Shown: piece after piece, positions 8,890-51,057 of the stretch
Position numbering within the stretch: position 1 is the first letter of the stretch
Layout of the letters: the number at the start of each line of letters is the position of its first letter
Assembly (NCBI GenBank): GCA_965224195.1
Contig: OZ245040.1
Coordinates: forward strand, 672,001-736,000
Direction: 5' to 3'
Source: Nitrosopumilus sp.
Lineage (GTDB): Archaea; Thermoproteota; Nitrososphaeria; Nitrososphaerales; Nitrosopumilaceae
DNA: 64,000 nucleotides
The notes under the pieces: generated by a model
Database searches by the model: none
What the model saw: only the letters and a program-made list of their open reading frames with translations
What the model was told of the DNA's origin: nothing
Made by a program: the position numbers and the translations under genes

Positions 8890-9579
8890 ATGGGCTTAGG
8901 AAGTTATTGGGGTGAAGTAATGGAAGTACTTCGAGAAATAATTCCAATTTATGATAAAGTTAATTCCATTATTTCATTAGGTAAGGATAAAGAGCACCGA
9001 ATTCGTGGAATCTCAAATAGAGTATTTCCAGGAAATAAAATTCTAGATGCAGGTTCAGGTTTTGGGAACATGTCAAAAACTGCTATGAACCTAACAGATG
9101 GAAAAATTTCAATTACACTGTATGATCCACTTGTACCAATGCTAAAAAATACAAGTACATTTTTTGAAGAATCCCCAGATATGGCAAATGGTGTTTTTGA
9201 ACACATCCCATTCAAAGACGGAGAGTTTGATGCAGTGTTATGTGGCTATTCATTAAGAGATGCAATTAATTTGAGAATTGCAATTTCTGAAATTCACAGA
9301 GTGTTGAAAAAAGATGGGAGATTTGTAATTGTGGATTTAGGAAAACCCGATGAAGCATTTTTCAGAGCAGGTGTTTCATTTTATCTAAGATGTATTCTAC
9401 CTATTCTTGCATTTGCAGCAGGAGGACGACTTGGATTAAAGTTTGGAACATTATATCGTACCTACAAAAGATGGCCACAAAATAAAAAACTGGAAGGATT
9501 AATTCTTGAAAAATTTTCAAGAGTAGAGTTTGAGAAAGATCTTATGGGTGGGGCAATAATGGTTGCAGCATACAAATGA
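8890..9579 (+). CDS. UbiE/MenG-like SAM-dependent methyltransferase
   Basis: ILDAGSGFG motif I, IPFKDGEFDAV, EIHRVLKKDG. Confidence 0.85.
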   Translation: MGLGSYWGEVMEVLREIIPIYDKVNSIISLGKDKEHRIRGISNRVFPGNKILDAGSGFGNMSKTAMNLTDGKISITLYDPLVPMLKNTSTFFEESPDMANGVFEHIPFKDGEFDAVLCGYSLRDAINLRIAISEIHRVLKKDGRFVIVDLGKPDEAFFRAGVSFYLRCILPILAFAAGGRLGLKFGTLYRTYKRWPQNKKLEGLILEKFSRVEFEKDLMGGAIMVAAYK

Positions 9580-10624
9580 ATAGAGTTCTGATACTAGTCA
9601 ACATCACAGGGTTAATCATTGGAATTTCGTATGGGTTACACGGTCCAATTCTACCAATATTTGCAAAAAATGTCATTGGTGCAACGTATTCCGAACTTGG
9701 TCTAATTGGATTAACCAATTTTATCCCTTACATGTTTATTCCACTTTTTGTAGGGATTCTACTTGATAGAATTAACAACGGATATTTGTTAGCTTTAGGT
9801 GCAGCCATAAATTCTGCATCAATTTATCTGCTATCCATTGCACAATCAGTTCCAGAAATAATGGGGTTTAGAATTATGACAGGTGTAGCTCATGCATTTT
9901 TCTGGCCACCGTGTGAAGCAATTATTTCAAATGAAAGTTCTAAAAAAACAGAGTAAAAAATATCTCATGGTTTACCATGTTTTTTGTAATTGGATTTATG
10001 ATAGGGCCATTACTGGGTACAGCATTACTTGAAGGCCTTGATGTCACATACAGGGTGCTATTCCAAATTGCAGCATTTATTCTCGCTGCTGCAATAATTA
10101 CTTCAGTTGTAGCCTCAAGAAAAAGCGAACAGAGTGACTGCACTGTACCTCAAGTAAAAGGCTGCAATAATTACTTCAGTTGTAGCCTCAAGAAAAAGAG
10201 TAAAAAAACATCACGAGAAATTTTCATTTTCATCAATTAAGAAAATGAAGAGATTTCCAGAAGTGGTAGTGTTGTTGATTTTCTGTACTTCATCGTTTGG
10301 AATAATTCTAACAATTTATCCGGCATTTCTCAATGATAATGGAATGTCTGCATCAGACATTTTGTTATTGTATTTTGTTTTTGGAATTTCGCGTGTTGTA
10401 TCTTTTGCATTAGCAGGAAAATTTGCAAGAAGTACTAGTCAAACTTTGATTGCAGGAACTATTGCAGTATCAGCAGGGCCATAGGGCCAACTATTGGAGA
10501 TCCCATTACACAATCATTTGGAAATGAAACACCGTATGTTGTGTTTTGTATCATAGGAATAAGAGTTACACTATTTGCAATAAGTGCTAGAAAGAAACTA
10601 GAACCACAAAGAATCTCAAATTAG
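9576..10624 (+). pseudogene. MFS transporter pseudogene in at least four pieces
   Basis: MFS helices in ORFs 9576..9956, 9977..10240 and 10245..10484; A-run frameshift near 9945, 73-bp duplication/insertion at 10088-10198, apparent internal deletion near 10480, C-terminal remnant ending at 10624. Confidence 0.85.
10088..10198. repeat. 36-38 bp direct repeat flanking a 35-37 bp unique insert (period 73)
   Basis: GCTGCAATAATTACTTCAGTTGTAGCCTCAAGAAAAAG at 10088-10125 and 10161-10198. Confidence 0.95.
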
Positions 10625-18121: not shown

Positions 18122-18854
18122 TTTTCTTCTTATCTAATCTTTTTTTAATTGCATATAAGATAATAAAAAATACAATCAAAATTGCACCCAATCCCTCAAT
18201 AATTATAGCAGTAAATGTTCCTAGCATAGTAAAAGTTTCACCAGTCTTAGAGGTAACTGGCTATGATTTATCATGGGTATCAACTGGTAAAGGTTCCTAG
18301 CATAGTAAAAATTTCACCAGTCTGCAAGGATTGTCTATTAAAAATAGAATCATCAATTCGAATATTAGAATTAGATTCTCTAAAATCAAGAGGTTTTGGA
18401 GATTCTGAAACACAAAATCCATTTCTGATCATCATATGTTTTTCACATGAGGTTTTACATTCAAACTAAACATGACAATTGTTGCAACATGATCATCTGA
18501 TTTTTTGGTACTAATTGGATATGGACTTGCATCAAGTAAAATAATTTTGTATGGAGAAAAGAATGTGTATGAATCAGTAGGCATGAAATCAACTGTTTTT
18601 GAATGAATTTGATTTTGAACTTGAATCATAGCAGTTACTTGTCCTCCCCAAACACAAGTAACATCAGAAGGACAACGTGAATCATCTACATCATAAAAAG
18701 TAAATTTAAGATCATCTACATGGATAGTCTGTCCAAGGTGTAATTTGATTTCCTTTTCTGCAAAAGATTCGTTTACCATACTAGTTGAAATTAAAACTGA
18801 AAACACAACTAAAATTATCAAATAATAACTAGTTTTCATTCTATATTTCTCCAT
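18111..18854 (-). pseudogene. Secreted/membrane-anchored protein (DSRCPSDVTCVWGG family), frameshifted and interrupted by a duplication/insertion
   Basis: Signal peptide and DDSRCPSDVTCVWGG in 18432..18854; an alternative frame continues (CEKHMIRNGFC...QTGE.FTMLGTFTAIIIEGLGAILIVFFIILYAIKKR) across the 76-bp insertion to a C-terminal TM anchor. Confidence 0.7.
18211..18323. repeat. 37-bp direct repeat (2 mismatches) flanking a 39-bp unique insert (period 76)
   Basis: GTAAATGTTCCTAGCATAGTAAAAGTTTCACCAGTCT (18211-18247) vs GTAAAGGTTCCTAGCATAGTAAAAATTTCACCAGTCT (18287-18323). Confidence 0.9.
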
Positions 18855-31812: not shown

Positions 31813-31920
31813 CTTGATCAATACTAAAAACTATGAATCATCTCAAGTAAGTTTCTCAGCCTCTTCTTTTTCAGAATTCATTTTTCTTGATCAATACTAA
31901 AAACTATGAATCATCTCAAG
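31813..31920. repeat. 35-bp perfect direct repeat flanking a 38-bp unique insert (period 73)
   Basis: CTTGATCAATACTAAAAACTATGAATCATCTCAAG at 31813-31847 and 31886-31920. Confidence 0.95.
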
Positions 31921-31941: not shown

Positions 31942-34900
31942 CTACCCCTTCACAATCTTGGCATCGCATATGCTCTGATACGGGCAGAACATGCATGCTT
32001 GAAAGCTTGGAGTGGGCTGGAAACTCTCCTTTAGGATGTTTTCTACTGTCTTTCCTATTGAGGTCATTGCCTCCCTGACTGACTCGGCAGTTACTTGATA
32101 CTCTACTGTCTTGTCTTTCTCAACATAAAACAGCGTGGCCTTTGCTGGCAGCTCCCCCTTTAGTTCCTCGACTGCCTTTGCGTAGATGTTTAGCTGCGGA
32201 TCAACAACTGCGTCTTTTTTGGATTTTGAAGACGAGCCGGACTTGAAATCCACCACTTCAAATCTCCCTTCGGGATTCTTTTCCAACCTGTCTATTCTTC
32301 CAGTAAACACCACATTTGCAATGCTGACCTCAAATGACAGCTCTGTATCAACTAGCGTATTCTGTGCAGCCTCTTCCCATTTCAGGTACGTGTCAATCAT
32401 CCTCTCGGCACGGCCCATTGCCTTGGTCTCATCTGTCTGGTTCTTGTAGGAGTGAAATATCCACTTTTCTTTTAGCTTTTCAAGTGCCACATCTAGGGTT
32501 ATTTTTTTGCCTTTTGCCTTTTCATTTGCCATCTCTTCTGTCATGGAATGAATCACTGTTCCAAGGTCCAGTGAGGCGCTGTGAGGTTGGGGAACGCGCA
32601 GTATCTTTTGAAACTTGAACTTTAAAGGACAGTCATTGTAGGCTTTTATGCTGCTGGCTGACAGTGAAAACTCTTCTGTGTTTATCAGGGGCTGTCTCTT
32701 TCTGACAATCTCTGATGACAAATCCAGTTCATCAACATCAATCTTTAGGATGGTTGCAGGATCAAAGCCGTCAAGACTTTCGTGCCTTTCATAGTGCTTG
32801 ATCCTTGACAGCTCCACGATTCTGTGCATTGCAGTGGTAAGATGCTGCTGGCTGATTGCACTTGCAGCCTCTCTCTGGAGCGACTCTTTTTTTCTTTGAA
32901 CAGCATCTTCGGATTCTATGTTGAAATTCTCAGACTCGTCAAACTCTACTGTCTCTATTAGGGGATTATCCTCATAGTTTAGCTCACAAAGAAACTGTGA
33001 TGGCTGCTTCTCATTTACATTGCCTGCATATCTTTTCGGGTACAGCAGGTACAGCACATCCATTGTCCTAGTTGCGGCGACATAAAACAGGCGCCGCTCC
33101 TCATCTGTGTGCAATACTTTAGAGTCTGCTGTCCTGCCTGCCCCCTTCATCAGTTCTACAGGTATGGTAAAGACCGATTCTTTCCATGATCCGGGGAACC
33201 TGCCGTCTGCCAAGTCCGTCACAAACACAATCGGAAACTCTTTTCCCTTGCTTTTGTGCATTGTCAGGACATTTACAGTGTCCTCTGGTGTAAAGTCCTC
33301 CACTTCTATCTCAAAGTTCCCGATGATTGACAGGTGCTCTATAAAGTCCGATACTGAACTTGCAGGATTGATATCTTGAAACTCTTGGGCAATTTCGTAA
33401 AACTTGTTGAGCAGCAGAATGTTCTTTCTGTCAAATGGCTTTTCTGAGTTGATGGACTTTTTGTATATGCCTGAGATCTCAAATATTATTTTGTAAACTA
33501 GCTCACTTGTTGTTAAATGACCTGCGATGCGGATCACATTGTCAATCTGCTCAATTAACTCAGCTATCTCTGATTTTTGTGTTATCCTAAAATCCATGTG
33601 CTGTCTTACTGTGTATAGGACAAAGTCATGTTCTTCGCCGTAGACATGCCTTGCTTTTTTGTGAGCCGCATTTGTCAGCACTGCAATGTTTTGCTCATGT
33701 ATGCCGTGGCTTTTTAGCAGTCTGTAAACCTCCACTCCTGAGGTTGCAGAAGAGGCTGCAATCTTTAGAAACGCCACAAGATCCAAAATTGCCCTGTTGG
33801 CAAAGATATCAGTCTCGCCTACAAATGTGGCAGGAATCCCAAATGACCTTAGCGCATTTGTAAACTTTTGGCCCTCTGCATTCCTTCTTGACAGAATTGC
33901 AATGTCTTTGTATGCAATGGGTGATGTGACTCCGTCCTTTCGCTCCAGGGGTTTGCCCAGCATGTCCTGTATGGTCTTTGCGACAAACTCTATCTGGCCT
34001 TTGTCTGTGTGGGTAGTGACTACCTGGACTGGCATGCCGTCTTTTTCTTCAGAAAAGAGTGTTTTTAACTCTCTGTTCTGAATTGGATTTAGAATTTGAA
34101 TTGCAAGATCTGTGATGTTTTTTGTACTTCGATAGTTTCGACTGATATCTATCTTTTTAAAATTTGGAAAACTCTTCTGAAAATCTTTGAATATTCCAAA
34201 AAACGCGCCCTGAAACCTCATGATACACTGGTCGCCATCGCCCACCACTGTGACGTTGCCTTCCTTGCCAAGAATCTTGACCAGACTTAGCTGCGAAAAG
34301 TTGTTGTCTTGAAATTCATCTACTAGTATATACTTGAACCTGTCAAGATATTCTTGCAGTAGCACCTCGTCTTTTTCAAGTATCTCTATTGCCTTGGTTA
34401 CCATGTCATCAAAGTCAATAAGGCCCTTGCCTTCTCGGTATTTTTCATATTCTGTATAGACTTTGTTGAACTCGTAAAGTCTGTGAAGGGACTTTGACTG
34501 CTTTTTTATTTTTGCATCGTCCTGATCTGAATGTTCTAATTTTGCCATGCTTGCCTGTATGTATTTTTCAAGCTCGTCTGGTTTGATTCGCTCTTTTTTA
34601 AAGAAGCCAATGGCCCTAAGAACCAGCGTGTATGTCTGTATCTGATTGTTTCCGATATTGAGATAGTCTTGGTTGAAATCAAACCTGTCGGTGTTTTTGA
34701 TGCACCAAACCATCTGGGATGTCTTCCTGAAAATTTTTGCATCCCTGTTCAGCCCTGATTCCATAAAGTTGTCTTCTAGAATCTCCTTTGCAAAAGAATG
34801 AAACGTGCTGACTTTTGCATCCAGTATTCCTGATTTTTTTAGACGCTGTTTCATTTCACCTGCAGCCTTTTCTGTAAAGGTCATACAGAGAATAGATTGT

Positions 34901-35064: not shown

Positions 35065-35143
35065 ACTAAAAGTTTACAGCGTGCATGTGTGGATGAGTTT
35101 ACATGCCTGGTCTTACCGTGAAGTGTTCTGATGGTGTGGTTTA

Positions 35144-38100
35144 CGTAACATTTTGGTTACGGAAATTCCTCCCATCAGGGGAGGTTCAGGTCAATACAGT
35201 ATGGGCTTCAATGGGGCCGTAACATTTTGGTTACGGAAATTGGGGAAAATGACATATACAATATATACTGTATATACGCTTCAATGGGGCCGTAACATTT
35301 TGGTTACGGAAATTGCATGGACCTCCAGATATAATTTACTCAACTTGTTCCGGCTTCAATGGGGCCGTAACATTTTGGTTACGGAAATGTATCTAATGGT
35401 CTTGGACCTGGACTTTTCTCACGAGCTTCAATGGGGCCGTAACATTTTGGTTACGGAAATTTGCGGAGATTTTCATCATTTCTTGCAAGAGTTGTATAGC
35501 TTCAATGGGGCCGTAACATTTTGGTTACGGAAATTATGGGTTAACCGTCTGGATGATTTGGAAGAAGTGTAGCTTCAATGGGGCCGTAACATTTTGGTTA
35601 CGGAAATTGCCTGGCCGGATATTTTTAGAATGCGGCGTATCCGGGCTTCAATGGGGCCGTAACATTTTGGTTACGGAAATTAATCACTCCCTGCTGCCAC
35701 TACCAGCAGATGACACAGCTTCAATGGGGCCGTAACATTTTGGTTACGGAAATCACGGGATGGAGTATAAACGATATTGAGCATTCTGCTTCAATGGGGC
35801 CGTAACATTTTGGTTACGGAAATAAGATGGCCAAGAAGAAGAGGCAGCACCAGCACCAGGCTTCAATGGGGCCGTAACATTTTGGTTACGGAAATCGTTG
35901 TAGATATCACCGGTGACAGAGTCTTCGTCTAGCTTCAATGGGGCCGTAACATTTTGGTTACGGAAATTTATCTGCCGTAATTTCAATTGAATCAATTGCA
36001 GTCTGCTTCAATGGGGCCGTAACATTTTGGTTACGGAAATCAGGTACCAGCATGGGCATAACTGACATGGTGGGCAAGCTTCAATGGGGCCGTAACATTT
36101 TGGTTACGGAAATTAGATTAGTTCTGCGTTGTTTCCTTCTCGGCATATTGGCTTCAATGGGGCCGTAACATTTTGGTTACGGAAATAAAAATTGACATAC
36201 ACTATGCCAATTTCCAGATTGGTAAGCTTCAATGGGGCCGTAACATTTTGGTTACGGAAATATCCCACTGTTGCCAGTGATGACACGTGTGACATCCTTG
36301 CTTCAATGGGGCCGTAACATTTTGGTTACGGAAATTGTGTCGACTATGATGGGGAGGATGTGCAGTATGTCTAAGCTTCAATGGGGCCGTAACATTTTGG
36401 TTACGGAAATAAAAAAGAAGTGGGTGAACCACGGTTATCATTTATTAGCTTCAATGGGGCCGTAACATTTTGGTTACGGAAATATTTCAGGTCTGCTTTT
36501 CTCAAGGTTGCACCGGGTTGCTTCAATGGGGCCGTAACATTTTGGTTACGGAAATAAATCATACGGGCCTTGAAGCGACCCGCTGCAAAGCAAGCTTCAA
36601 TGGGGCCGTAACATTTTGGTTACGGAAATTATTCCTGGCAGATGTCATGGACAAAATCAGTGGTCATGCTTCAATGGGGCCGTAACATTTTGGTTACGGA
36701 AATTAGGAACACCTGCATAACAGTAAGACATTTATCCGTAGCTTCAATGGGGCCGTAACATTTTGGTTACGGAAATGTGTCTCGCTCAAGCAGTGTCTTT
36801 GTTACGTCATTGTCTGAGCTTCAATGGGGCCGTAACATTTTGGTTACGGAAATCGTTTTGTGGTGACGTGTACCTGTTGGCACCGGTGTGCTTCAATGGG
36901 GCCGTAACATTTTGGTTACGGAAATCAGGGAGCTTTCTCGGGATACCGGTCAGCTTGGCTTTGCTTCAATGGGGCCGTAACATTTTGGTTACGGAAATCA
37001 TGCTATTCCGACGTGGTAGGTGTATCTACGAATTGCTTCAATGGGGCCGTAACATTTTGGTTACGGAAATCATATCTGAGATTTGCTCCTTCCAGATCTG
37101 TGCCAATGCTTCAATGGGGCCGTAACATTTTGGTTACGGAAATCATATGATATCGGGTATGGCCGTCCAATGTCCTCGGGCTTCAATGGGGCCGTAACAT
37201 TTTGGTTACGGAAATGGGATGAAGTACGGGCAAAAATAAATCGTGCAACCATGCTTCAATGGGGCCGTAACATTTTGGTTACGGAAATATGGCTACAAAG
37301 TCATAACTGTAATGGTGGTTAACGCGCTTCAATGGGGCCGTAACATTTTGGTTACGGAAATTAATGCTGAGTTGTTAACCAAATTCACATTCGTAAAGCT
37401 TCAATGGGGCCGTAACATTTTGGTTACGGAAATCGGTATCGAAACCTATCACAAGCCCAACCCTGAAAACTAGCTTCAATGGGGCCGTAACATTTTGGTT
37501 ACGGAAATCCGGTGGTGATTCTGCAATAGCTGATAGTTACACATTGCTTCAATGGGGCCGTAACATTTTGGTTACGGAAATCAGTTAAGATGACGGATTA
37601 TATAGATCAGTCCGAAATCGGCTTCAATGGGGCCGTAACATTTTGGTTACGGAAATCATTGCGTATACAGCGTGCTCATGTGCTTTTCAATGGCTTCAAT
37701 GGGGCCGTAACATTTTGGTTACGGAAATCACCTGACGGAGGAGTTGATGGCGGTGATGGTGATGGGCTTCAATGGGGCCGTAACATTTTGGTTACGGAAA
37801 TTTGTCAGGGCGAGTGAGACGAGGGTTGGCACGTATGCTTCAATGGGGCCGTAACATTTTGGTTACGGAAATTCGGCAGATAGACGGAGTGTTATGATGC
37901 CAGTCGAACCGCTTCAATGGGGCCGTAACATTTTGGTTACGGAAATCAAAGGACATATGTACTGCCCAAAATGTCGCAGACCTGCTTCAATGGGGCCGTA
38001 ACATTTTGGTTACGGAAATTAACCCAGGGATTCCCGGCGTAATCGATGGAGTTGTGCTTCAATGGGGCCGTAACATTTTGGTTACGGAAATCCGAGACTC

Positions 38101-41100
38101 TTGACATTGCGGAATCGCTTGGATCAAGCTTCAATGGGGCCGTAACATTTTGGTTACGGAAATTGCCTGTACCAAGATGTGATTTTATCGAGGGCATCCT
38201 TGCTTCAATGGGGCCGTAACATTTTGGTTACGGAAATCCGTAAAGGCTGCTGACCAGTGGAGGTCTAGTATCTAAGCTTCAATGGGGCCGTAACATTTTG
38301 GTTACGGAAATAATGCAAAGGCATGATTCATGAAATGGGTTACAGTCTGCTTCAATGGGGCCGTAACATTTTGGTTACGGAAATCTGAACCGATTGCCGC
38401 GTATGCCTTTTCTTTCTTCTTGGCTTCAATGGGGCCGTAACATTTTGGTTACGGAAATGCGTATATAGCAGTTATAATTTCAGAAACAGAATATGCTTCA
38501 ATGGGGCCGTAACATTTTGGTTACGGAAATTTATAGCTCATGACATTGTCAGTGTGGAAGTCATTTAGCTTCAATGGGGCCGTAACATTTTGGTTACGGA
38601 AATGCACCAAAAAAAGGGTAACTTGGGTGTTTACAATTCTGCTTCAATGGGGCCGTAACATTTTGGTTACGGAAATCGAGTTAACCCCATGTCTAGGGTC
38701 GTGGTGTCAAGAGCTTCAATGGGGCCGTAACATTTTGGTTACGGAAATTCAGATGCAAATGGGGAAATTGTCATGGGCGCAGAATAGCTTCAATGGGGCC
38801 GTAACATTTTGGTTACGGAAATATCGCCGTTGCCAGTGTGCCACCTACAGTATCTCTCGCTTCAATGGGGCCGTAACATTTTGGTTACGGAAATAAAATT
38901 CGGAAACAACTAGAGCAGGACAAACTGAATAGCTTCAATGGGGCCGTAACATTTTGGTTACGGAAATATTTCCACAACGGAAACGTTGTGGCCCCATTGA
39001 AATAGCTTCAATGGGGCCGTAACATTTTGGTTACGGAAATCAGAAAAGGCTAGACGTGTATTTGACAGCAGGAGCATGCTTCAATGGGGCCGTAACATTT
39101 TGGTTACGGAAATTCACGGAAAATATGCCGACATTCGCTTAACGCCTCACGCTTCAATGGGGCCGTAACATTTTGGTTACGGAAATCAAAAATTAATGCT
39201 TGGAAATAAGTTCTCAAATCTAAGTGCTTCAATGGGGCCGTAACATTTTGGTTACGGAAATCAAAATTGCAGAATAAATGTCAAGTTCTTCCAGCTTGCT
39301 TCAATGGGGCCGTAACATTTTGGTTACGGAAATCACAAGGGAGCCACAACATATAAGCCCAGTTATTATAGCTTCAATGGGGCCGTAACATTTTGGTTAC
39401 GGAAATATGCCAATGTTTGCACGACCAGTTACAAACTTGTTCTCTCGCTTCAATGGGGCCGTAACATTTTGGTTACGGAAATTTGCAGGATGCCGTATCT
39501 GAGACGGAGACTAATTGAGCTTCAATGGGGCCGTAACATTTTGGTTACGGAAATCAGTTGGGCCTTTATTTCTCTGACCAGGTTGGCAGTGCTTCAATGG
39601 GGCCGTAACATTTTGGTTACGGAAATTCAGATTTGCTCCAAACATTTCTGCCCCTCTCAGAGCTTCAATGGGGCCGTAACATTTTGGTTACGGAAATCTA
39701 AAGAATTCAGGCAGTAAATCCGCCATATCTATCGCTTCAATGGGGCCGTAACATTTTGGTTACGGAAATTAGAAGATAGAGTGCGATTAAATGTTTGGTA
39801 GGGCATTAGCTTCAATGGGGCCGTAACATTTTGGTTACGGAAATACAGTAATTCCTGAAAAAGTGAATACTGCTGAACTAGCTTCAATGGGGCCGTAACA
39901 TTTTGGTTACGGAAATTCGAGCCATCAATGTTTGACAAATTCGTTCTACTGTGCTTCAATGGGGCCGTAACATTTTGGTTACGGAAATACGGGATATTGA
40001 TTCATTAACTCGTCAACGATTCTGAGCTTCAATGGGGCCGTAACATTTTGGTTACGGAAATTTTGGTTTCTTCGGATGTTTTCAGCGCACTAATTCCGTG
40101 CTTCAATGGGGCCGTAACATTTTGGTTACGGAAATCGATAGGTGATGACCTAGATAATGTCATAATTGATTAGCTTCAATGGGGCCGTAACATTTTGGTT
40201 ACGGAAATAAATCTGTTGCATTCAGCCAATAATGTGCTCCAACAGCTTCAATGGGGCCGTAACATTTTGGTTACGGAAATGCGGAAAACAAACAAAGCAC
40301 ATCACTCGAAAAAGAACAGCTTCAATGGGGCCGTAACATTTTGGTTACGGAAATCTCACAAGATTTACAGGTTAATCCGCCAAGTTAACTGCTTCAATGG
40401 GGCCGTAACATTTTGGTTACGGAAATTTGCAAAGCCAACCATATGCAAACCGTCTTGAATCGTCAAGAGCTTCAATGGGGCCGTAACATTTTGGTTACGG
40501 AAATTTATAACAATTCAAACATTGCTGAAGACTCTGACCTGCTTCAATGGGGCCGTAACATTTTGGTTACGGAAATCTTGAAAGGCGCAAATCTAAAAGG
40601 AGCAAACCTAGTGCTTCAATGGGGCCGTAACATTTTGGTTACGGAAATTCGGTTATAATCTCTGATTGTCATTAGTCCTCTTATCGCTTCAATGGGGCCG
40701 TAACATTTTGGTTACGGAAATCTGATACGTCGATGTCGATTGATGCCTTTCTTTTGCCGCTTCAATGGGGCCGTAACATTTTGGTTACGGAAATTTAGTC
40801 CAAAACTGGATTAACAGAAATTCCTCAAAGCTTCAATGGGGCCGTAACATTTTGGTTACGGAAATTTGACATAGTGGCTATCAAATTAGTGGCTCCTTGC
40901 ATATGCTTCAATGGGGCCGTAACATTTTGGTTACGGAAATAGGTCAAGATGGTTTAGAAATCATTGTTTTTTATAAGCTTCAATGGGGCCGTAACATTTT
41001 GGTTACGGAAATAAAATACAAACGAGGACTAAAAGCAGCTAGCACTGCAGCTTCAATGGGGCCGTAACATTTTGGTTACGGAAATCAGTTGATGAACTGA

Positions 41101-41740
41101 ACCAGAGTTCAGTTTTAGTCAGCTTCAATGGGGCCGTAACATTTTGGTTACGGAAATTCGGAACGATTGTAATAATTACAAGTGACCCGAAAAGCTTCAA
41201 TGGGGCCGTAACATTTTGGTTACGGAAATCTAATCCGTCTTGGGAATATGCTTTTTGACCGTGGATCTGCTTCAATGGGGCCGTAACATTTTGGTTACGG
41301 AAATGATGTGTATGCGTGCCTGTACCAAGATATAATTTTGTGCTTCAATGGGGCCGTAACATTTTGGTTACGGAAATCATGGAATTTTATTACACTGCAG
41401 TATCACGAGGGAGGCTTCAATGGGGCCGTAACATTTTGGTTACGGAAATTTATGCAGGTCACATGTGTTCGCTGTGGATACACAAAGCTTCAATGGGGCC
41501 GTAACATTTTGGTTACGGAAATGTGCAGTAGGTCTACCTCGACATCTACAGAATTATAGCTTCAATGGGGCCGTAACATTTTGGTTACGGAAATTTTTTC
41601 CAGCAAAAAATTGAAAAGAGATACACAACTAAGCTTCAATGGGGCCGTAACATTTTGGTTACGGAAATTCCGAGTACCCTCACGGAGTTAGAACTGAGTG
41701 AGTAGCTTCAATGGGGCCGTAACATTTTGGTTACGGAAAT
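35144..41740 (-). CRISPR. Type I-G CRISPR array: 90 identical 36-bp repeats plus one degenerate trailer repeat, about 90 spacers of 34-42 bp
   Basis: Repeat (minus strand) ATTTCCGTAACCAAAATGTTACGGCCCCATTGAAGC with stem CCGTAAC/GTTACGG; partial repeat 35144-35166 marks the trailer; count made by eye. Confidence 0.98.
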
Positions 41741-41911
41741 AGCAGAAATTGTGCTCAAGTTTTTACTATTTGTATAATTATACATACGTTTGTTTATTTA
41801 CTTCACAATATGTTGTTAACTATAAAAACCAATTTTTAGTTTTTCATAGATCTTATATTGTTATGACAAGCGCTTCTGCATGTGTACGTCATCACATCGT
41901 CCCTCGTCAAG
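41741..41911 (-). promoter_or_regulatory. CRISPR leader
   Basis: AT-rich non-coding segment between cas2 and the first repeat; TATA-like palindrome TGTATAATTATACA about 30-45 bp from the repeat. Confidence 0.8.
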
Positions 41912-42202
41912 TTATATTATTATTGCAGACTCTTTTTTTGTGTTTATCGGTTCACCTAGTGTGCTTATACAATTTTTACCTCTACCATCAACAGGTCCAA
42001 CATCAATTATTAAAACTCTGTCTTCTTTTAAATTTAATATCTCTTTTAGATCCCCTTTCATTAGAACCAATTCCTTTGGATTTACATCGCACATAAATAC
42101 AGAATATTGAACCGGTATGCCATAACCGTTCATTTTTTTGTATGTATCTGCAAGTCGTCTAGGCTCACTCACATCATAACATACAAAATATCTATTACGC
42201 AA
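41912..42202 (-). CDS. cas2: CRISPR-associated endonuclease Cas2
   Basis: YFVCYDVS, YGIPVQYSVFMC, EDRVLIID. Confidence 0.95.
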   Translation of the reverse strand: MRNRYFVCYDVSEPRRLADTYKKMNGYGIPVQYSVFMCDVNPKELVLMKGDLKEILNLKEDRVLIIDVGPVDGRGKNCISTLGEPINTKKESAIII

Positions 42203-42205
42203 TAA

Positions 42206-43876
42206 TTATCGTGTCCTAAATGATAAATAAGAAGGTAATTCCCCTAAAAGGTATCGGGATAAAAGTCTTGCCTGAATTTCCATGATTCTTCTATAACTTA
42301 CAACGTATCCTAATAATGGGTGTGTGATTGGAGTATCCATCCTTCGCTCAAAGGCATTGATGATCTTGCTTTTTCCATTTTTTGTAAGAGTCACACCGAA
42401 CTTTGTTCTTATAATATCTGCATTTGATAATTCACCATTATTGATTATTGTAATGCAAACTGAATCTGCAATTATTGGCCTGAATTCTTCAATTAAATCT
42501 AAGGCAAGTGCAGGTTTACCATATCTGGGTTTATGAAGAAACCCTAGATAGGGATCAAGGCCTACTCGTAATAGAGTAACTGTTGCCTGTTTTGTAAGCA
42601 TCGTATACAAAAATGAAAGTATCGCATTTACTGGGTCTAGAGGAGGGCGTTTGTTTCGCCCATTAAAATCAAAATCATACAAATTTGTTTTTAGCATTCC
42701 ATTAAATTCTGAAAAATAAATCTTTGCTGCAATTCCTTCAATTCCAAGAATTTGTTCGTACTTTTTAGCAACACGTGCCTTCTCTGCAAATTTATCAATC
42801 TCAGTGGATACCGTATTTGGCAGATGTTTGTGATTTCTACGCAACAACGTAATGCAATTTTTGATCTTCCCAAATACAATCTCTCTCGCAACTGGCATGA
42901 ATAATTTATCTTCTGCTGCTTGTTTGTATTGGCATAATCTTAGTTCCACATTCTTATGAGACATTCCATTAGTAATCCCTGTAAACCATCCACCATAGCT
43001 CAGATAGCATATTGGAATATTATTATCACACAGATAACGTACTGCTTGAGTCGTAACTTGAATATTTCCCATTATTGTGATATTGGAGATGTCAAGCATC
43101 CTGATTTTTTTTAACACATTACCTTGATATTTGATTACTATGCAATCATGATCCTTTGATACTACGGCGCCTTGTTCCTGAACATATACTGGCATTGAAT
43201 CATCTACAGCAGGATACATGCGTCTAACTTGACTTTTTTTAATTAATTTCTTAGACTTGCCTGCAAGCAGATTTATCTCATCTGGAAGACATATTCCAAC
43301 CAGAGCACATCTGGGGCATTTTGGACTGTCTACTAGTGGGGGTGGCATTATATTTGAACGTGCCATGTCACGCATTTGCTGGATCATCTTTTCTGTCTTC
43401 TCAACTAGAACATCTGAAAATACAACTTCTATGCGCTGTTTTGATGATATGTAATATATGATTCCTTTTGTACATGTATATCCGTGAGATCTAAGTAATA
43501 ATCCCTGACCACATATCTGAATCTTGTGATAATCATGTACTTTATCTGGAATATTTGGAACGGCACCACGTTTGTATTCTATGGGTGTGGCATATGATCC
43601 ATCTAATTCTAGCAGGTCCATCTTTGCAATGAGACCAACATTGCTGTCTGAAACAGTAATTGATCTTGCATGAATTACTTGATCAGGATCTTCTCTTAGT
43701 TTTTTATTTCCTGACGGTTTATCTACATTTCTGTGCTGCATCTTTCCATCTATTACATCTACAGTATCTGTAAACTCATTTTGTATCCACTGCATGTATG
43801 CTGAACGTGGACAATATGCATATTCTGCAAGCATACTTACAGGAATGAATCTTGGTTCTTTGTATTCTGCCATCAT
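42206..43876 (-). CDS. cas1: Cas4-Cas1 fusion
   Basis: Cas4: YCPR, MDLLE, PIEYKRG, KCPRCALVGICLPDE; Cas1: LGIEGIAAKIYF, RPPLDPVNAILS, LGFLH, LALDLIEEFRP. Confidence 0.95.
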   Translation of the reverse strand: MMAEYKEPRFIPVSMLAEYAYCPRSAYMQWIQNEFTDTVDVIDGKMQHRNVDKPSGNKKLREDPDQVIHARSITVSDSNVGLIAKMDLLELDGSYATPIEYKRGAVPNIPDKVHDYHKIQICGQGLLLRSHGYTCTKGIIYYISSKQRIEVVFSDVLVEKTEKMIQQMRDMARSNIMPPPLVDSPKCPRCALVGICLPDEINLLAGKSKKLIKKSQVRRMYPAVDDSMPVYVQEQGAVVSKDHDCIVIKYQGNVLKKIRMLDISNITIMGNIQVTTQAVRYLCDNNIPICYLSYGGWFTGITNGMSHKNVELRLCQYKQAAEDKLFMPVAREIVFGKIKNCITLLRRNHKHLPNTVSTEIDKFAEKARVAKKYEQILGIEGIAAKIYFSEFNGMLKTNLYDFDFNGRNKRPPLDPVNAILSFLYTMLTKQATVTLLRVGLDPYLGFLHKPRYGKPALALDLIEEFRPIIADSVCITIINNGELSNADIIRTKFGVTLTKNGKSKIINAFERRMDTPITHPLLGYVVSYRRIMEIQARLLSRYLLGELPSYLSFRTR

Positions 43877-44598: not shown

Positions 44599-45525
44599 TC
44601 AAACTTCCTTTGTTCCTTTTGTAAATCTCATTTGTTTATCTTTGGTAATTCTTTCTGAAGAATACAATTCCAATCCAATTTTGTCAAGTTCTTCTGGCTT
44701 AAACTTGGAGTAATCTGTAGACAAAATACCTCGAATTTCGTCCAGACCTGCAAACTCTTCCCATATTGGCCATACAAATTTTTTGTCATTCCATCCAATA
44801 GTACGTACATGCTTACCATCGTATAGTGTGGGATAAAGAGAAATAGCTTCTACTGCAAGTCTGTTTGCTCCATGCATAGATGGGTTAAAACTCGGTACAG
44901 GATCAAATATCAGCAGTGCATGCTCTCGTAGAAGAGATATAGGATCCCAATACATAGAAACACCGTCATCCAAATAATCCCATTCTTTAAAGAGTGTGGT
45001 ATGGATCCCTTCTTTCTTTCTTTCTATTTCCCCCACAAGCTTGTTTGCATTCCCAAATAAAGTTGCGTTTCCAGTTACAAACCGAAACAAACTATCTTTA
45101 ATTTCTTCTTTGTCTGGAAAAGCAACAGATGCAGCAAAATCATATAGGCGTCTTTTGCTTGAAAAATTATTAGAATCGATCTTATTCATAATCAGATCCA
45201 TAATAAAACCCATAAATTCATTGTATTGATCATATTTGTTGGCCTTTGTAGATTTTGAGTCCTTTTTATTTTTCCCCTTCATAATCCCTCCATAATCAAT
45301 GTCTTGTGGCTCAAACAAAGGATCATCTTTGCCAAGATGCTCTGCAAGTAGATCAGATATCTCTTCTTCTGTTGGTTCTTTACCATCTTTACATCGTATC
45401 TCTGCATTGGTATTCCAACGTAACTCCCATTCTGATTTTGGTTCTATCATGTCAAGTACTCTAATAGTTCCAAGGGATACCAAAAAATTAAATGGGTTGT
45501 CAGGGTATAAACTGTGTAAGATCAA
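44599..45525 (-). CDS. Type I-G large subunit (Cas8g/Csb3-like); probable TTG start overlapping cas3 stop
   Basis: NPFNFLVSLG, WDYLD...WDP, GANRLAVEAISLYP, FVWPIW; position directly after cas3. Confidence 0.7.
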   Translation of the reverse strand: MILHSLYPDNPFNFLVSLGTIRVLDMIEPKSEWELRWNTNAEIRCKDGKEPTEEEISDLLAEHLGKDDPLFEPQDIDYGGIMKGKNKKDSKSTKANKYDQYNEFMGFIMDLIMNKIDSNNFSSKRRLYDFAASVAFPDKEEIKDSLFRFVTGNATLFGNANKLVGEIERKKEGIHTTLFKEWDYLDDGVSMYWDPISLLREHALLIFDPVPSFNPSMHGANRLAVEAISLYPTLYDGKHVRTIGWNDKKFVWPIWEEFAGLDEIRGILSTDYSKFKPEELDKIGLELYSSERITKDKQMRFTKGTKEV

Positions 45526-48329
45526 TTTGTGCCACCGCTTGCTTCCCAATCCGCAAGTATGAATAAGGCCTCCAACCATGCAAGTCCCCACCACCCATAC
45601 TTTCTAACACATATCCAAAAACGTTTTGCAGCTCCACTTCCAACACGCTCAATTCCAGTAGACGCTTGAGCTTGTAGCGTTTTCCCATCCAAAACATACT
45701 CTATATTTGGATTTTCATCATCGATGACTACTGGTACAAACGGTCTACAATGACCATGATGGGATTCTACTAGGTGTAAAAATAAATCATTATCGAAAGT
45801 ATTCAGTGTTTTAGCAAATTCTGATGAAATAAATTCATGCCTAAAGCCCTTTGGGTAATATATGACACTTGAATCTTTTTTCTTCCCGTTATCTTTTGCA
45901 CGAAGTTGTGGATGGTGCATTTTTGATCTATACAGCATGTCTTGGAATCTTTTGTCTGCCTTTCCTATGTCGTGCACCTTTGCAGTCATTTCAAATAATG
46001 CAGTAAAATCATCTAGTTTTAGTTTTTCTACATATTTCTTAACATTTTTCACAACATCATCTGTATGATCCTCTAAAATTTCTTTTGGGGTATCTTTGTC
46101 TTTTTTTTGGCCTGTTTTATATCTGGATTTGATTAGCAAAATGTTGTCATCTAGCTCTCCAATATGATCTATAGGAGAATTTGTCATATCACTGTCGATT
46201 TTTAAAGTTTTGTCAATTGCTTTCAGGGAATCCCACAATGGAGTTTTTTCTAGTGATTTCCATATTGTTTTTTTAATTTTTTCAATATCCATCTTTGAAT
46301 ATTCATTTTTTATAGCATGAATAAGATCTTTTCCCTCATCTGTCATCTTTACTGGAAAGTTATTTCCCATTCTAATTACTAGTTTCTTTGTTGATTCAAA
46401 TGTAGCTTTTTCGGCAATGTCTACACATGTCTTGTCTGTATTTTCATTTGACCCATATTCATCCATGTCCGGTATGTGACCTAGTTTTGACCATCCTCCA
46501 TCTTCAGTACGTAGCACAATAACATCACTAGGTTTTATATCATCTGGGTTAATTTCACCGTTCTGACCTGATTTTTTACCGCGCCAAACCCATGCACTTA
46601 TCTTTGCTCGCTTCTCATTGTCCATGCCTTTTGCTCGCTTCTCATTGTCCATGCCTTCTGCTAACTGCCATTCCACATCTCCATCAGCGCATAAATCCTT
46701 TTCATTTTTTAGATATTTGCGAATATCCCATATTGGGACTTGCATGGATTCAATAGATTTTGGTAAAAGTGCATTCATTATGTCTTCCCAATTGGCATCT
46801 AGGCCAGAACGCCATATTACAGAGACCATTGGTGAGCCTCGCTCAAAGCCATGTAGAAATGGAGATATGTCAGGATCAATGTGAAGATGGTTGTGTGTTT
46901 GACATAACAGATCCATATGAGATGGTAAAAGATTGCATGATACTGGTCCTGGCATAACAAATTCTGCCACCTGATCATAATTACATTTATCAATTATTTT
47001 CTTGAATTTTTTTATCCCAAAATCTATCGTGTCGTTTGTGGCATTATTTTTAAGAAAGTCCCATGTTTTGCTTACTGTATCACCATATATAAAATCACTA
47101 CCATTACTATTTACGACAGATTTTGGCGCAACTATCGAACACCGTGAATTTAGATATTCGCCGCTACGGTTAAGCCTTCCAAATCTTTGCCTAAGTGAAT
47201 CTAAACTTGATGCCTCACTGACCATACCTGCAAAATCAAGATCAGCACCTACCTCAAGACACTGTGTTGTCACGATAAATGTTACTTCAGTGGGTTTTTT
47301 TTCACCTGTCTTAAATGGTTTTATATCGCGCCATAATTTATCACGATCCCATGGTCTCATTCTTCCAATCATGAGATGTGTATTGTGATGGCCACTTTCC
47401 TTTAATTTGCGATATACCTCTTTTGCTGTTGCGATTCTGTTTACAACTATGGCAATTGCTTTAATGTTGTCTTTCTCTAACTCTAAAGCTTGTTTTTGAA
47501 TATCTGATGCAAGTTTCTCATAATCCTTACTGTCTTTTGCATTTGATTCTATTAACTTACACATTTTAGAGGCCTCAACTATGCGTTTTATTTTATCATG
47601 TTTATAGTCAGCATCAGAGAGTTCAAATCTTTCTGTCTCTTTAATGGGTGTTGCAGTCATTTCTACCACACCCCATGGTCTAGGGATTGATTTACCCTCA
47701 ATCCAAGGTTCCTTCCTAAATTCTTCAATACGTCTTAATGTCTCTGTGAATGGTTTGCTGATATGCGTCTCATCTAGTATCCAAAGACAATCATATCCCA
47801 AAAGCCCTGCATTTACAAGTCTAGACATACGTCCTAGGCCATATCCGCGAAAGAGTAATCTGGATCCTGCTTGATCTACAGTTGATGCGATAACAATTGG
47901 TTGTACTGGATTACTACTCCATTCATTATCAATATGAGTTCCACCCCGGAGGACAGCATGCATTAGAGCTGTTTTACCTCCAGAAATATCACACAGGCTC
48001 TTTTTCACCCTCCCCAGTATCGAGTCATCTGTTGATTTCTCTAACTCATCGGATATTTTCTTGGCACGCTCATTTCCTTCATCTACAACTATTCGTCTGT
48101 TGACAACAAACACTATTCTTCTTGGATTCTTCTCAGGATTACATGCAAGTGCATATACTGCTATATCTATGCATGACGTCTTTCCACATCCAGTTGGAAC
48201 ATTTATGCTTTCAGGCCATCTACCTGTCTCAATTACTTGCTCGGCAAGCTTGCTTTGCCACGGGTATGGCTCATATCCATGTATTTCTCGATAAAAATCC
48301 TTAAACTCACAGGAAGTTAATTCAACCAT
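45522..48329 (-). CDS. cas3: Type I-G Cas3 (SF2 helicase with C-terminal HD nuclease)
   Basis: PTGCGKT, VNRRIVVD, STVDQAGSRLLFRGYG, DETH, EVGADLD, QRFGRLNR; C-terminal HDIGKAD, RHE, SHHG, LADWEAS. Confidence 0.95.
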   Translation of the reverse strand: MVELTSCEFKDFYREIHGYEPYPWQSKLAEQVIETGRWPESINVPTGCGKTSCIDIAVYALACNPEKNPRRIVFVVNRRIVVDEGNERAKKISDELEKSTDDSILGRVKKSLCDISGGKTALMHAVLRGGTHIDNEWSSNPVQPIVIASTVDQAGSRLLFRGYGLGRMSRLVNAGLLGYDCLWILDETHISKPFTETLRRIEEFRKEPWIEGKSIPRPWGVVEMTATPIKETERFELSDADYKHDKIKRIVEASKMCKLIESNAKDSKDYEKLASDIQKQALELEKDNIKAIAIVVNRIATAKEVYRKLKESGHHNTHLMIGRMRPWDRDKLWRDIKPFKTGEKKPTEVTFIVTTQCLEVGADLDFAGMVSEASSLDSLRQRFGRLNRSGEYLNSRCSIVAPKSVVNSNGSDFIYGDTVSKTWDFLKNNATNDTIDFGIKKFKKIIDKCNYDQVAEFVMPGPVSCNLLPSHMDLLCQTHNHLHIDPDISPFLHGFERGSPMVSVIWRSGLDANWEDIMNALLPKSIESMQVPIWDIRKYLKNEKDLCADGDVEWQLAEGMDNEKRAKGMDNEKRAKISAWVWRGKKSGQNGEINPDDIKPSDVIVLRTEDGGWSKLGHIPDMDEYGSNENTDKTCVDIAEKATFESTKKLVIRMGNNFPVKMTDEGKDLIHAIKNEYSKMDIEKIKKTIWKSLEKTPLWDSLKAIDKTLKIDSDMTNSPIDHIGELDDNILLIKSRYKTGQKKDKDTPKEILEDHTDDVVKNVKKYVEKLKLDDFTALFEMTAKVHDIGKADKRFQDMLYRSKMHHPQLRAKDNGKKKDSSVIYYPKGFRHEFISSEFAKTLNTFDNDLFLHLVESHHGHCRPFVPVVIDDENPNIEYVLDGKTLQAQASTGIERVGSGAAKRFWICVRKYGWWGLAWLEALFILADWEASGGTN

Positions 48330-49780
48330 TGTTTATCCCACCATGGCCTACACAAACCATACCCATTATATCTTCCAGCTCCTAATAATAATGGACCTGT
48401 GATTTTTTCCTTGAATTGAAGTCGTGCATGCACTTGTATTCTGTTTTCTGCATACTTTGGAAATGTGTTGGACTTTGGCACTCCCTTTAGAAATGCAATA
48501 TTTGATATGGATACATCAGGTTCAGGAAGATTTTGATATGTGCATGATTTGGATATTATTTCCCCCGCTTTGTCATTCCAGGTTGTACTATCTTTTACAC
48601 GTGGAATTCTATCTAATATTATTGGTGTTGTTGTAACCCATGTTCTTGCAGATTCTTTCCAAGTATTCGGGTCTAGCGTTCTTATGGGGTGATCCGGAGG
48701 ATCCAAAGAAAACACTATGTCATCATAATTTTTATTCTTGATTCTAATCTCCGTGGATTCTTTAGTGCCAAACAATGCCTTTGAAATAACATCTTCACTT
48801 TTAGAATCTCTTTCACGTGGAAATATGATTGCAACGCCACGAATTAATCCGTCTGCATATGAATGGCCTGTAAAAGATAATGGTACTATTGCAATATGTG
48901 GCTTTTTACTTGGATTTCCATCCGTATCAAGTCCTGATATATATTCTGGCGAATTACTTTCCTGTATTTTATTTCTTAGAGATCGTATTACATGTTTGCT
49001 GTGTAATAAACTGGGTTTTTGATCACTTGTAATTGGCATAATCCACATATCTGAAAATTGACCTCGAATACAGGGTGCTTTCTGATCTTGTTTTTTAGAA
49101 TATCTGTATTCTGGTAGAGATATGGCATTAAGACGTGCTTTTCTGATAAAATATTCATCATGACTTTTAAGAATGTCTTTTACCATAAATGATTTTTCTA
49201 GTTTGGATAATAGTCCTTTTGATGCCCAGCGAACTGTGGTATCTCCAAACTTGTCTGGAATCATGGCAGGATCTATGCTGACTTTTGAATCATTAACGGT
49301 TAATGAGACAAAACTGCTACTGTGACCCAACCTATGAACTCGAGAACAAAGTGTCTTTAACGTATTCGAGTATTTTTGAGAATCTGCATCATCCCATACA
49401 AAATACACTGGGTCATACCCTGTTATGGTGGTGGGAAACATGCGTGACTTGCGTATTCTATTTAGAGGTATTTCTAATGTTGTCAACAGTGCACCGCCTT
49501 TTTTGACTTTTTTCCCAATTTCATCATTTATTGGAACATATGTTTCTACAATATCACGTTTGGTAATTTTATCTGGTTCATAATATATCCAAGGGGGGCT
49601 ACATTGTTCAAGCCACTCTAAAGCTTTCTTTTCATTTTGTTTTTCACCTCCATCAAAATATGCCGACACCATTGCCATAAACAATCTGCCTGGATGTGGT
49701 GGCCATTCTGGTTTTTTATCTTGTTTTAAATTTGTTGCAGTATAGCGTCCTGTCAAAAACTCTATGCTGATAGACAGCAT
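48317..49780 (-). CDS. csb2: Type I-G Csb2 (Cas5-Cas6 fusion)
   Basis: EWPPHPGRLFMAMV, ALEWLEQ, YVPIND, RLGHSSS, WVTTTPIILDR, GPLLLGAGRYNGYGLC. Confidence 0.92.
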   Translation of the reverse strand: MLSISIEFLTGRYTATNLKQDKKPEWPPHPGRLFMAMVSAYFDGGEKQNEKKALEWLEQCSPPWIYYEPDKITKRDIVETYVPINDEIGKKVKKGGALLTTLEIPLNRIRKSRMFPTTITGYDPVYFVWDDADSQKYSNTLKTLCSRVHRLGHSSSFVSLTVNDSKVSIDPAMIPDKFGDTTVRWASKGLLSKLEKSFMVKDILKSHDEYFIRKARLNAISLPEYRYSKKQDQKAPCIRGQFSDMWIMPITSDQKPSLLHSKHVIRSLRNKIQESNSPEYISGLDTDGNPSKKPHIAIVPLSFTGHSYADGLIRGVAIIFPRERDSKSEDVISKALFGTKESTEIRIKNKNYDDIVFSLDPPDHPIRTLDPNTWKESARTWVTTTPIILDRIPRVKDSTTWNDKAGEIISKSCTYQNLPEPDVSISNIAFLKGVPKSNTFPKYAENRIQVHARLQFKEKITGPLLLGAGRYNGYGLCRPWWDKQWLN

Positions 49781-49782
49781 AG

Positions 49783-51057
49783 TTAATCTCCTTTTGAATC
49801 ATCTTCTAATCCACTTTGTGAATTTTTTATACACTGAATAAGATCCTGATTTGGTAATAATTTCATAGGTGTTGTATCCCATGGCAAATCATTACTAGTT
49901 GCATCTTTAATCGAGTCTTCTAATAATTTAATTGCACCTTTACTGTCAAGAGTAAATGTTTTATCCATATTGCCGAGTACATCCCAAGTTGTTGGTTCTT
50001 TTTGTATCAAAACACATCTTGAGCGAAGATCCAATCCATTTTCCACCGAAAGCGTAAATGCTACAAGTCCAAGTGCTGTTAATACTGCTCTTGCTGCATC
50101 ATCTTTTTGTATATTTATTGATTTTTCATTTTCATTAGGAAAATGTAGTTTTCGGAGTCCAGCAAGAGAGATAACACATGTCTGTTCTGCATATTCTATT
50201 GTTGCTCCATTTGCAGCGATATCCCCTTTTTTGATAGTGTTGTCGTTAGAAAGGGGATTACTTGAACCAGGTAAGTTATCACTATATGTATTGAGACTTG
50301 GTGCGACATTTCCTAGGTTTATGTTAGATAATTTCCCTTCTCGATATTTTGTTGACTTGTCTTTTTCGTCCTTTTTTGCTTCATTTTCATCAAGCGTCCA
50401 ACCTCCATCTTCTTTTTCCCATACTCTGCTATCAGAAGTTTTTTGGATTAAAGGATCAATACGGCTTGAAGTACCAACTCCAAACACTGCATTAATGCCA
50501 ACTATTTCACTAGTAATTACCCGTTCAAATTTGTTTCCCGATCCTCCTTTTGGACCTGCAGAGTCCCACATGCCAAAAAGTAATGCTGTAGGACATGTGC
50601 CAAACAGAGATGTAGAAGAATAAGGTGTAGAGTTTAGTATTTTGATACCCTCTTCAGATTCACGAAACGGCTTACCATTTAAAATACATTCCCTAAACAA
50701 TGCATCAGCTATGCGGTGCGGTGCCTGAAGGCTTGTTAAACGATTTCCTACAATGTCTAAATCATCTTTACTTGATTCAGAAAAATCAATTACAGCTAAC
50801 GGTAGTTTTATTTTTTCAGAATCAACAGCATTTTGTAATGCTTCCTCCATACGATTTGCTTGGCTAGCAACAGAATCCATCAAAACACATTTGGTTGTTT
50901 TTTCATTAACCAATCTGTCTTCTATGGCATACACTCCTCCTGCATATGTAGAGGGAAATATTTTACTATGTTGCCCACCGGCTGGATATAATTTGTTAAT
51001 TGTTCTTATGGCCACCTGATCTTTTATAATTTCCTTAAATTCTTGAAATTCTAACAT
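49783..51057 (-). CDS. csb1: Type I-G Cas7 (Csb1)
   Basis: KIFPSTY, DSVASQANRMEEAL, APHRIADA, PTALLFGMWDS, LDLRSRCVL. Confidence 0.92.
   Translation of the reverse strand: MLEFQEFKEIIKDQVAIRTINKLYPAGGQHSKIFPSTYAGGVYAIEDRLVNEKTTKCVLMDSVASQANRMEEALQNAVDSEKIKLPLAVIDFSESSKDDLDIVGNRLTSLQAPHRIADALFRECILNGKPFRESEEGIKILNSTPYSSTSLFGTCPTALLFGMWDSAGPKGGSGNKFERVITSEIVGINAVFGVGTSSRIDPLIQKTSDSRVWEKEDGGWTLDENEAKKDEKDKSTKYREGKLSNINLGNVAPSLNTYSDNLPGSSNPLSNDNTIKKGDIAANGATIEYAEQTCVISLAGLRKLHFPNENEKSINIQKDDAARAVLTALGLVAFTLSVENGLDLRSRCVLIQKEPTTWDVLGNMDKTFTLDSKGAIKLLEDSIKDATSNDLPWDTTPMKLLPNQDLIQCIKNSQSGLEDDSKGD

Follow-up and report, generated by a model that had tools for sequence, protein, structure and literature searches.

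What placed two identical copies of one sequence, a spacer's length apart, in the middle of a transporter gene of Nitrosopumilus sp.? The gene, a member of the major facilitator superfamily (MFS), lies in a stretch of 64,000 nucleotides (nt) that we analyzed as a whole and call the window (positions 672,001 to 736,000 of the forward strand of contig OZ245040.1, assembly GCA_965224195.1). The same window holds a CRISPR array with its Cas genes. We conclude that the 73-bp insertion in the MFS gene is best explained as an off-array (ectopic) spacer integration by the type I-G Cas4/Cas1-Cas2 enzymes. Judging from the sequence, we put the probability of this explanation at roughly 85%.

The two copies (10088-10125 and 10161-10198) are identical over 38 nt, start 73 nt apart, and enclose 35 nt (10126-10160). 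The repeat cannot be longer than 38 nt, because the flanking bases on either side differ between the copies. Within an ambiguity of 2 nt, the duplication may be 36, 37 or 38 nt long, which allows three partitions. A preliminary description of the locus had reported a spacer-sized insertion in the MFS gene; this is borne out, and the split into 36 and 37 nt given there, which we follow in Table 1, is one of the three. With its 35 to 37 nt, the insert has the length of a spacer: those in the array of the window (array 1) measure 34 to 42 nt, most often 36 or 37. The period of 73 is also the commonest unit of array 1 (31 of 89 units, with 72 nt in 30 of 89). As had been described, the insert is richer in GC (45.7%) than the target (36.8%) and the genome (33.6%), and its value falls inside the range of the array spacers.

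Relatives reveal the state before the insertion. Among the 18 same-genus relatives with a match, 16 have an empty site, where the flanking alignments meet on one target copy and query bases 551-585 are missing; the remaining two match only distantly and in part, outside the site. An alignment with relatives L002-L004 gives a base-by-base view of the empty site. Since the 16 relatives carry one target copy and no insert, the insertion is the derived state, and it is not something that orthologs share. The event had also been called recent, which the data bound only loosely. The copies are indeed identical and the closest relative (91% identity) does not have the insertion, but 38 nt are too few for dating, and the gene carries two other lesions.

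Membership of the gene in the MFS is supported by Pfam and by an intact ortholog. The piece at 9576-9953 matches MFS_1 with 58.6 bits, and two later pieces give weaker matches, collinear with later parts of the profile; the ortholog in L002 is 384 amino acids (aa) long, scores 196.9 bits for MFS_1, and is 91% identical in DNA sequence. Alignment with L002-L004 brought out two lesions absent from the preliminary description: a 1-nt deletion near 9940 that leads to a stop at 9954-9956, and the loss of about 175 nt at 10475/10476. The 73-nt insertion itself is a +1 frameshift. Its excision fuses the two frames, as had been claimed, turning stop-free spans of 98 and 108 aa into one of 155 aa. Judged by these three lesions, the gene is a pseudogene.

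We then considered the enzymes that may have acted here. Beside array 1 lies the full type I-G signature set (Cas4g/Cas1g, Cas3g, Csb1/Cas7g, Csb2 and Cas2), all above NCBIfam cut-offs, and by this gene content the system is type I-G CRISPR-Cas. Array-1 spacers are mostly 36 nt (n = 30) or 37 nt (n = 31), followed by 38 nt (n = 12) and 39 nt (n = 9), and the commonest units are 72 and 73 nt. The end of the array far from cas2 has a shortened terminal repeat near 35140-35165. Given this and the AT-rich 171 nt beside cas2, array 1 is read on the minus strand. Its transcribed repeat, ATTTCCGT...CCATTGAAGC, forms a hairpin with a 7-bp stem at -8.2 kcal/mol; the duplicated MFS target folds at -3.0. 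There are three arrays in the genome, each beside its own Cas1 (707205-713740, 942056-946529 and 1457181-1466783 of contig C1, on which the window is C1:672001-736000). The repeat of array 2 is 30 nt long, and the Cas1 there is a type I-B Cas1b; array 3 has a 37-nt repeat, an unassigned Cas1, and units mostly of 72-73 nt.

The insertion in the MFS gene has many parallels in the same genome. We scanned the 2.06-Mb contig C1, outside the arrays, for solitary direct repeats at a spacing of 40 to 130, requiring a match at 29 or more of 30 bases and excluding cases with a third copy or a short internal period. The scan returned 58 rows. Forty had a spacing of 69-80 and 35 a spacing of 71-76, versus 18 over the other 79 spacings, or about 0.2 per spacing. 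We dropped C1:146505 (inside a repeat-protein gene) and C1:1541048 (the same as 1541050), and this left 38 off-array events in the genome, the MFS site included. C1:1911472, a tandem protein repeat, was likewise kept out of the counts. Their spacing has its mode at 73, then 72 and 74, as in array-1 units, and the exact runs are mostly 36-38 nt. Seven events crowd into 40 kb at 882-923 kb, whereas the region from 174 kb to 682 kb is free of them. Some are in frame within long open frames (such as 1326525, in a frame of 1060 aa); others split frames that excision rejoins. The insert of the second event in the window matches a repeated element of its own genome at four places. Two loci, C1:912671 (spacing 66) and C1:1228750 (spacing 69), have 30-nt duplications and 36-39-nt inserts, which is the geometry of array 2, and may be off-array events of the second, type I-B module.

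Inserts with a source in the genome were particularly informative. Seven of the 38 inserts, 36-40 nt long, have full-length copies elsewhere in the genome. Since these copies mark the borders of the insert, they fix the length of the duplication, which is 36 nt in five events, 35 nt in one, 34 nt in one, and 37 nt in none. The other 31 inserts have a mean GC content of 42.1%, close to the 42.3% of array-1 spacers; the self-derived inserts have 35.5% and the genome 33.6%. Outside the arrays, host DNA has no match to any of the 287 array spacers, but it does to 7 of the 38 off-array inserts. This fits with a purge of self-targeting spacers that is confined to places where they function.

The sources of self-derived inserts cluster beside orc1/cdc6, called from a Cdc6_C match at C1:194976-195236 in a 404-aa frame. 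Three of the seven (195966, 207998 and 234901) fall in C1:194976-235000 of this genome. In G114, a genome of another species of the genus, three of five fall in C1:523000-576000, at 575144 (homologous to 196227 here), 561939 and 523291. The region near the presumed replication origin may be a hot spot of capture.

If the type I-G enzymes made these scars, the scars should follow the genes, and this is the pattern we observed in two further genomes. G012, a complete genome of 1.56 Mb from the same genus that has no Cas4g/Cas1g gene, gave eight rows in the same scan, none of them at a spacing of 58-84. When 39 events were compared with G012, all seven with an orthologous region there had an empty site; 30 lie in DNA that G012 does not have, one had a single matched flank, and one had matches not covering the site. 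G114, by contrast, has a type I-G system with a similar 36-nt repeat and a Cas4/Cas1 fusion 63% identical to the one here. In 1.2 of its 1.87 Mb, the scan gave 20 rows at a spacing of 70-76, 19 of them distinct (88235 is the same event as 88227 and was dropped), and at least 5 of the 19 inserts are self-derived. In two G114 events, C1:37495 and 243305, the insert is the same and the targets are nearly so, which points to a later segmental duplication of a scarred locus. Type I-G was also seen in the genomes G051, G112, G119, G078, G009, G014, G053 and G099 of the genus.

Table 1. Positions in the window of the features discussed, followed by the starts of the 38 off-array events on contig C1
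Feature	Position	Strand	Remarks
MFS transporter pseudogene	9576..10624	+	Three lesions; from Pfam MFS_1 matches and alignment with L002-L004
Target-site duplication, copy 1	10088..10123	+	36 nt taken as duplication, identity reaches 10125; 18/36 to the array repeat, 7 of the first 8
Spacer-sized insert	10124..10160	+	37 nt if the duplication is 36 nt; unambiguous 35-nt core 10126-10160
Target-site duplication, copy 2	10161..10196	+	Identity reaches 10198
Second off-array event in the window	18211..18323	+	Duplication of about 36-37 nt with 2 mismatches, insert of about 39-40 nt, spacing 76
Third off-array event in the window	31813..31920	+	Exact 35-nt duplication, 38-nt insert, spacing 73
CRISPR array 1	35205..41740	-	90 identical 36-nt repeats
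AT-rich leader, cas2 to first repeat	41741..41911	-	171 nt, read directly from the sequence
cas2	41912..42202	-	TIGR01573, 35.5 bits (cut-off 24.5)
cas4/cas1 fusion (Cas4g/Cas1g), proposed integrase	42206..43876	-	NF049935, 714.7 bits (cut-off 560), full length
Type I-G effector genes: Cas3-extension, Cas3g, Csb2 (Cas5/6), Csb1 (Cas7g)	44599..51057	-	Profile matches
38 off-array events, first half	C1 starts 3947, 173581, 682088, 690217, 703813, 739057, 778950, 798295, 813401, 882675, 886994, 898236, 907258, 911485, 912527, 923061, 1090869, 1129506, 1159163
38 off-array events, second half	C1 starts 1228750, 1238974, 1326525, 1363425, 1490406, 1541050, 1542932, 1549643, 1619794, 1639455, 1692970, 1698884, 1718775, 1745573, 1892823, 1973078, 2047816, 2052402, 2053228

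Does the enzyme strike where the target looks like a repeat? The preliminary description had counted 18 of 36 ungapped matches between the MFS target and the array-1 repeat. The count is correct, and it lies above random genomic controls: 200,000 random 36-mers in the same register gave a mean of 9.3 and P(≥18) = 0.0012, and with both strands and offsets allowed, P was 0.0077 (0.77% of random 38-mers). The array-1 repeat finds a mean best match of 13.4 over the 38 events, versus 12.3 for random sites (z = 3.7); the targets do not resemble the repeats of array 2 (z = -0.2) or array 3 (z = 0.3). The resemblance sits in the first 8 nt of the repeat on the plus strand (GCTTCAAT), which are the last 8 nt of the transcribed repeat. 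At least 5 of these 8 match in 21 of the 38 events, where 10.7 are expected and the maximum in 300 control sets was 18. The MFS site, with 7 of 8, is one of the three best. It does not look like a functional CRISPR repeat; it shares half of the repeat's positions and lacks a conserved hairpin.

Several observations weigh against our explanation or against parts of it. A spacer captured from foreign DNA is not expected to resemble the site it enters, and at the MFS locus the insert does (P of about 6 × 10−5). The global alignment of insert and target scores +10, versus -6.8 ± 3.7 for random genomic 35-mers, of which 17 in 300,000 reach this score. The last 13 nt of the insert match the target in register at 12 positions, a fit reached by 1 in 300,000. 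Over the segment ACTnCAnT(T)GTA(G)CCTCAAGnAAAAG, about 23 of 27 positions are as in the target, with two 1-nt gaps. This likeness is exclusive to the MFS site among 57 events (none of the 37 others here and none of the 19 in G114), and it remains unexplained. Furthermore, the insert has no protospacer or match with a protospacer-adjacent motif (PAM) in any collection searched. The ruler argument, that the enzyme duplicates 36 nt, rests on other events, since the MFS duplication itself may be 36, 37 or 38 nt. Repeat positions 9-36 are not mirrored in the targets when the events are oriented by the 8 nt alone (7.08 matches, versus 7.20 in controls), and the 8-nt motif is not enriched in G114 (3 of 19 events, versus 5.2 expected). 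Finally, by our own reading of the flanks, the motif TTN stands beside the source of only one or two of the seven self-derived inserts, and no consistent motif was apparent by eye in the flanks of these seven sources.

The search for a source of the MFS insert was broad. We found none in the window with up to 3 mismatches, in its own genome by blastn-short, in 150 genomes of the genus with up to 3 mismatches, or as an exact match in IMG/VR viral contigs, metagenome contigs and genome contigs; blastn against the INPHARED phages returned chance matches only (E = 4). The protospacer with a PAM that the preliminary description had hoped for thus did not turn up. Neither did an exact copy in nearby host DNA, although the insert's likeness to its target touches on this question. 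We also considered that the insert could be a segment of an ortholog or paralog of the same gene. The reading frame is broken by the 1-nt gaps, a stop ends, by our own reading, the frame with the best match to the target, and no relative carries the insert, so we rejected this idea.

The likeness leaves some room for two other possibilities. One is that homology between prespacer and target steered the integrase to the MFS locus; we regard this as doubtful. The other is a local, templated origin, in which slippage or template switching during repair made an imperfect copy of neighboring sequence and the period of 73 is a coincidence. In favor of such a copy, the insert resembles its target far above chance, and Tandem Repeats Finder calls three copies of about 36 nt with 70% identity. 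No simple duplication, however, explains outer copies that are identical around a middle one that differs by about 30% and has several 1-nt gaps, and in the alignment the insert fails to pair with the target over its first 10-11 nt. The period and the duplication length recur, moreover, in 37 other events, in which insert and target are unrelated (mean z = 0.06), and the control genome without type I-G, G012, has no such structures. We therefore consider a non-CRISPR origin improbable. An artefact of assembly or a chance repeat is hardly credible: the assembly consists of two contigs with 99.85% completeness, the 38-nt exact repeat belongs to the 35 rows at spacings of 71-76, where any other spacing has about 0.2, and seven events are insertions relative to G012. 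A casposon or other transposon seems unlikely, since each insert is different and has the size of a spacer, and casposons make far shorter duplications, of about 14-15 bp.

A Cas1 of another module could also have done it, either the type I-B Cas1b of array 2 or the unassigned Cas1 of array 3. With a Cas1 gene beside each of three arrays, the means are there. The units of array 3, 72-73 nt, fit the period of 73, and a 37-nt duplication fits within the 38-nt identity. C1:912671 and C1:1228750 look like type I-B products. The targets, however, resemble the array-1 repeat and not those of arrays 2 and 3, and the MFS site itself matches the array-1 repeat at 18 of 36 positions and the array-3 repeat at only 15 (P = 0.26). 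Self-derived events show a 36-nt duplication in five of seven cases and a 37-nt one in none, and G114, with a 36-nt type I-G repeat, bears the same scars. Another module thus appears as improbable as a non-CRISPR origin, and integration by the type I-G enzymes remains our preferred explanation.

How would such an integration proceed? Cas4/Cas1-Cas2, encoded about 32 kb away and loaded with a prespacer of about 37 bp, would bind the MFS gene. Two transesterifications, one on each strand, would follow at a distance of 36 bp, the repeat-length ruler of the enzyme. Gap repair would then leave the 36-bp target duplicated on both sides of the new spacer, and the outcome would be the +1 frameshift; the gene has by now become a pseudogene. 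A ATTGNAGC-like end (GCTGCAAT on the plus strand) may have helped to place one of the two cuts; at the MFS site, this repeat-like end would be ATTGCAGC. We infer both the identity of the acting integrase and the role of the motif. A repeat-end motif may bias one cut in this genome, and a pseudo-repeat is not required. Of the earlier proposal that Cas1 recognized a pseudo-repeat, integration by Cas1 is supported by the geometry, the Cas4g/Cas1g and Cas2 genes beside the array, the 16 empty sites and the approximately 38 events. The recognition part shrinks to the 8-nt motif enriched here, to which positions 9-36, the hairpin and G114 lend nothing.

The fate of the new spacer can be guessed from the same features. 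The duplicated target has neither the hairpin nor most of the repeat sequence, so that maturation of a CRISPR RNA (crRNA) is unlikely. The locus is probably a dead memory that yields no mature crRNA, with the +1 frameshift as its sole effect. We found no off-array locus with a second spacer among three candidate multi-copy loci that we inspected. These three, the third-copy candidates outside large repeat-protein regions, turned out to be protein-coding tandem repeats, and we rejected them as multi-spacer neo-arrays.

The arrays themselves yielded further observations. Array-1 spacers had no protospacer match in phage records, and in the 150 genomes of the genus the matches to array 1 were confined to other arrays and to solitary sites resembling a repeat, none of them a protospacer. 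Against their own genome, array spacers matched between arrays only. One array-1 and one array-3 spacer overlap by 22 nt, and both systems probably hit the same element. In array 2, two consecutive spacers at C1:943550-943919 are present twice (943550/943817 and 943616/943883), pointing to a segmental duplication inside the array. An orphan, degenerate mini-array at C1:1626160-1626335 consists of a variant of the array-1 repeat with 4 mismatches, a 38-nt spacer and a partial repeat; just upstream lies another stretch that resembles a repeat and has the same ends. The minus strand at 31942-35064, just past the leader-distal end of array 1, encodes a 1040-aa protein with a UvrD/PcrA-type helicase and a C-terminal Cas4-like nuclease domain (TIGR00372, 70.6 bits, cut-off 65). 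A 238-aa frame at 43873-44589, also on the minus strand, has a match to Csb2 that is limited to its C-terminal half (253-492 of the profile). The full Csb2 is at 48317-49780, and the 238-aa frame may be a partial second copy.

Off-target integration of this kind is known from the laboratory. In 2018, in Nat Microbiol, Nivala, Shipman and Church reportedly described off-target integration by the E. coli type I-E system that gave rise to "neo-CRISPR" loci when Cas1-Cas2 was overproduced in culture. They are also said, in a passage that cites their work, to have had circumstantial evidence in two other species. As far as these accounts go, the events here are like those of E. coli in being spacer-sized inserts outside arrays, flanked by a target duplication made by Cas1-Cas2. 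They are unlike them in being natural and fixed, in an archaeal-type genome with a type I-G fusion, and they number about 38 here and 19 in the part of G114 that was scanned. The MFS event is thus a natural, archaeal, type I-G instance of the off-target integration known from laboratory work with E. coli.

Other adaptation modules offer partial parallels. In vitro, Pyrococcus furiosus Cas1-Cas2 integrates into non-CRISPR DNA that shares some features of the repeat, and repeat motifs together with their spacing set both cut sites (PMC6698737). That work is a plasmid assay with another subtype; in our case, what targets and repeat have in common amounts at most to an 8-nt motif at the repeat end, in one genome, and none was detected in G114. 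The type I-U (now I-G) Cas4/1-Cas2 of Geobacter sulfurreducens acquires mostly 36-bp spacers with a TTN PAM (PMC6547450). Its Cas4-Cas1 fusion belongs to the same family as the one here by the NCBIfam model, and its spacers of 36 bp compare with 36-37 nt here. As reported, however, acquisition was scored at the array only and TTN was selected, whereas most self-derived off-array inserts here have, by our own reading, no adjacent TTN. Streptococcus thermophilus shows ectopic spacer acquisition within arrays (PMC7999890). Integration there is reported to be likewise away from the leader-proximal repeat, but into genuine internal repeats, whereas here it is into ordinary genes. In our literature search, no account came up of off-array integration that is natural and genome-wide, whether in Thaumarchaeota or in type I-G systems, nor one of dozens of fixed off-array events per genome.

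These findings raise the possibility that the type I-G Cas4/Cas1-Cas2 of this genus is a chronic endogenous mutagen, one that has left dozens of scars per genome and broken genes, the scars forming an unselected log of what the enzyme captures, self DNA included. We judge the case for this to be evenly balanced. Prior evidence, as far as the sources at hand describe it, came from overproduction in E. coli and from in vitro work, with circumstantial evidence from nature; here, two wild genomes carry dozens of scars and a relative without the system carries none. The events provide a natural set of target sites for a type I-G integrase, and they expose the capture of prespacers free of the selection that purges self-targeting spacers. 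If the proposal is true, the capture log holds self DNA that never survives in real arrays, with the self pieces clustering beside orc1/cdc6, and both the fidelity of adaptation and its fitness cost would be measurable from genome sequence alone.

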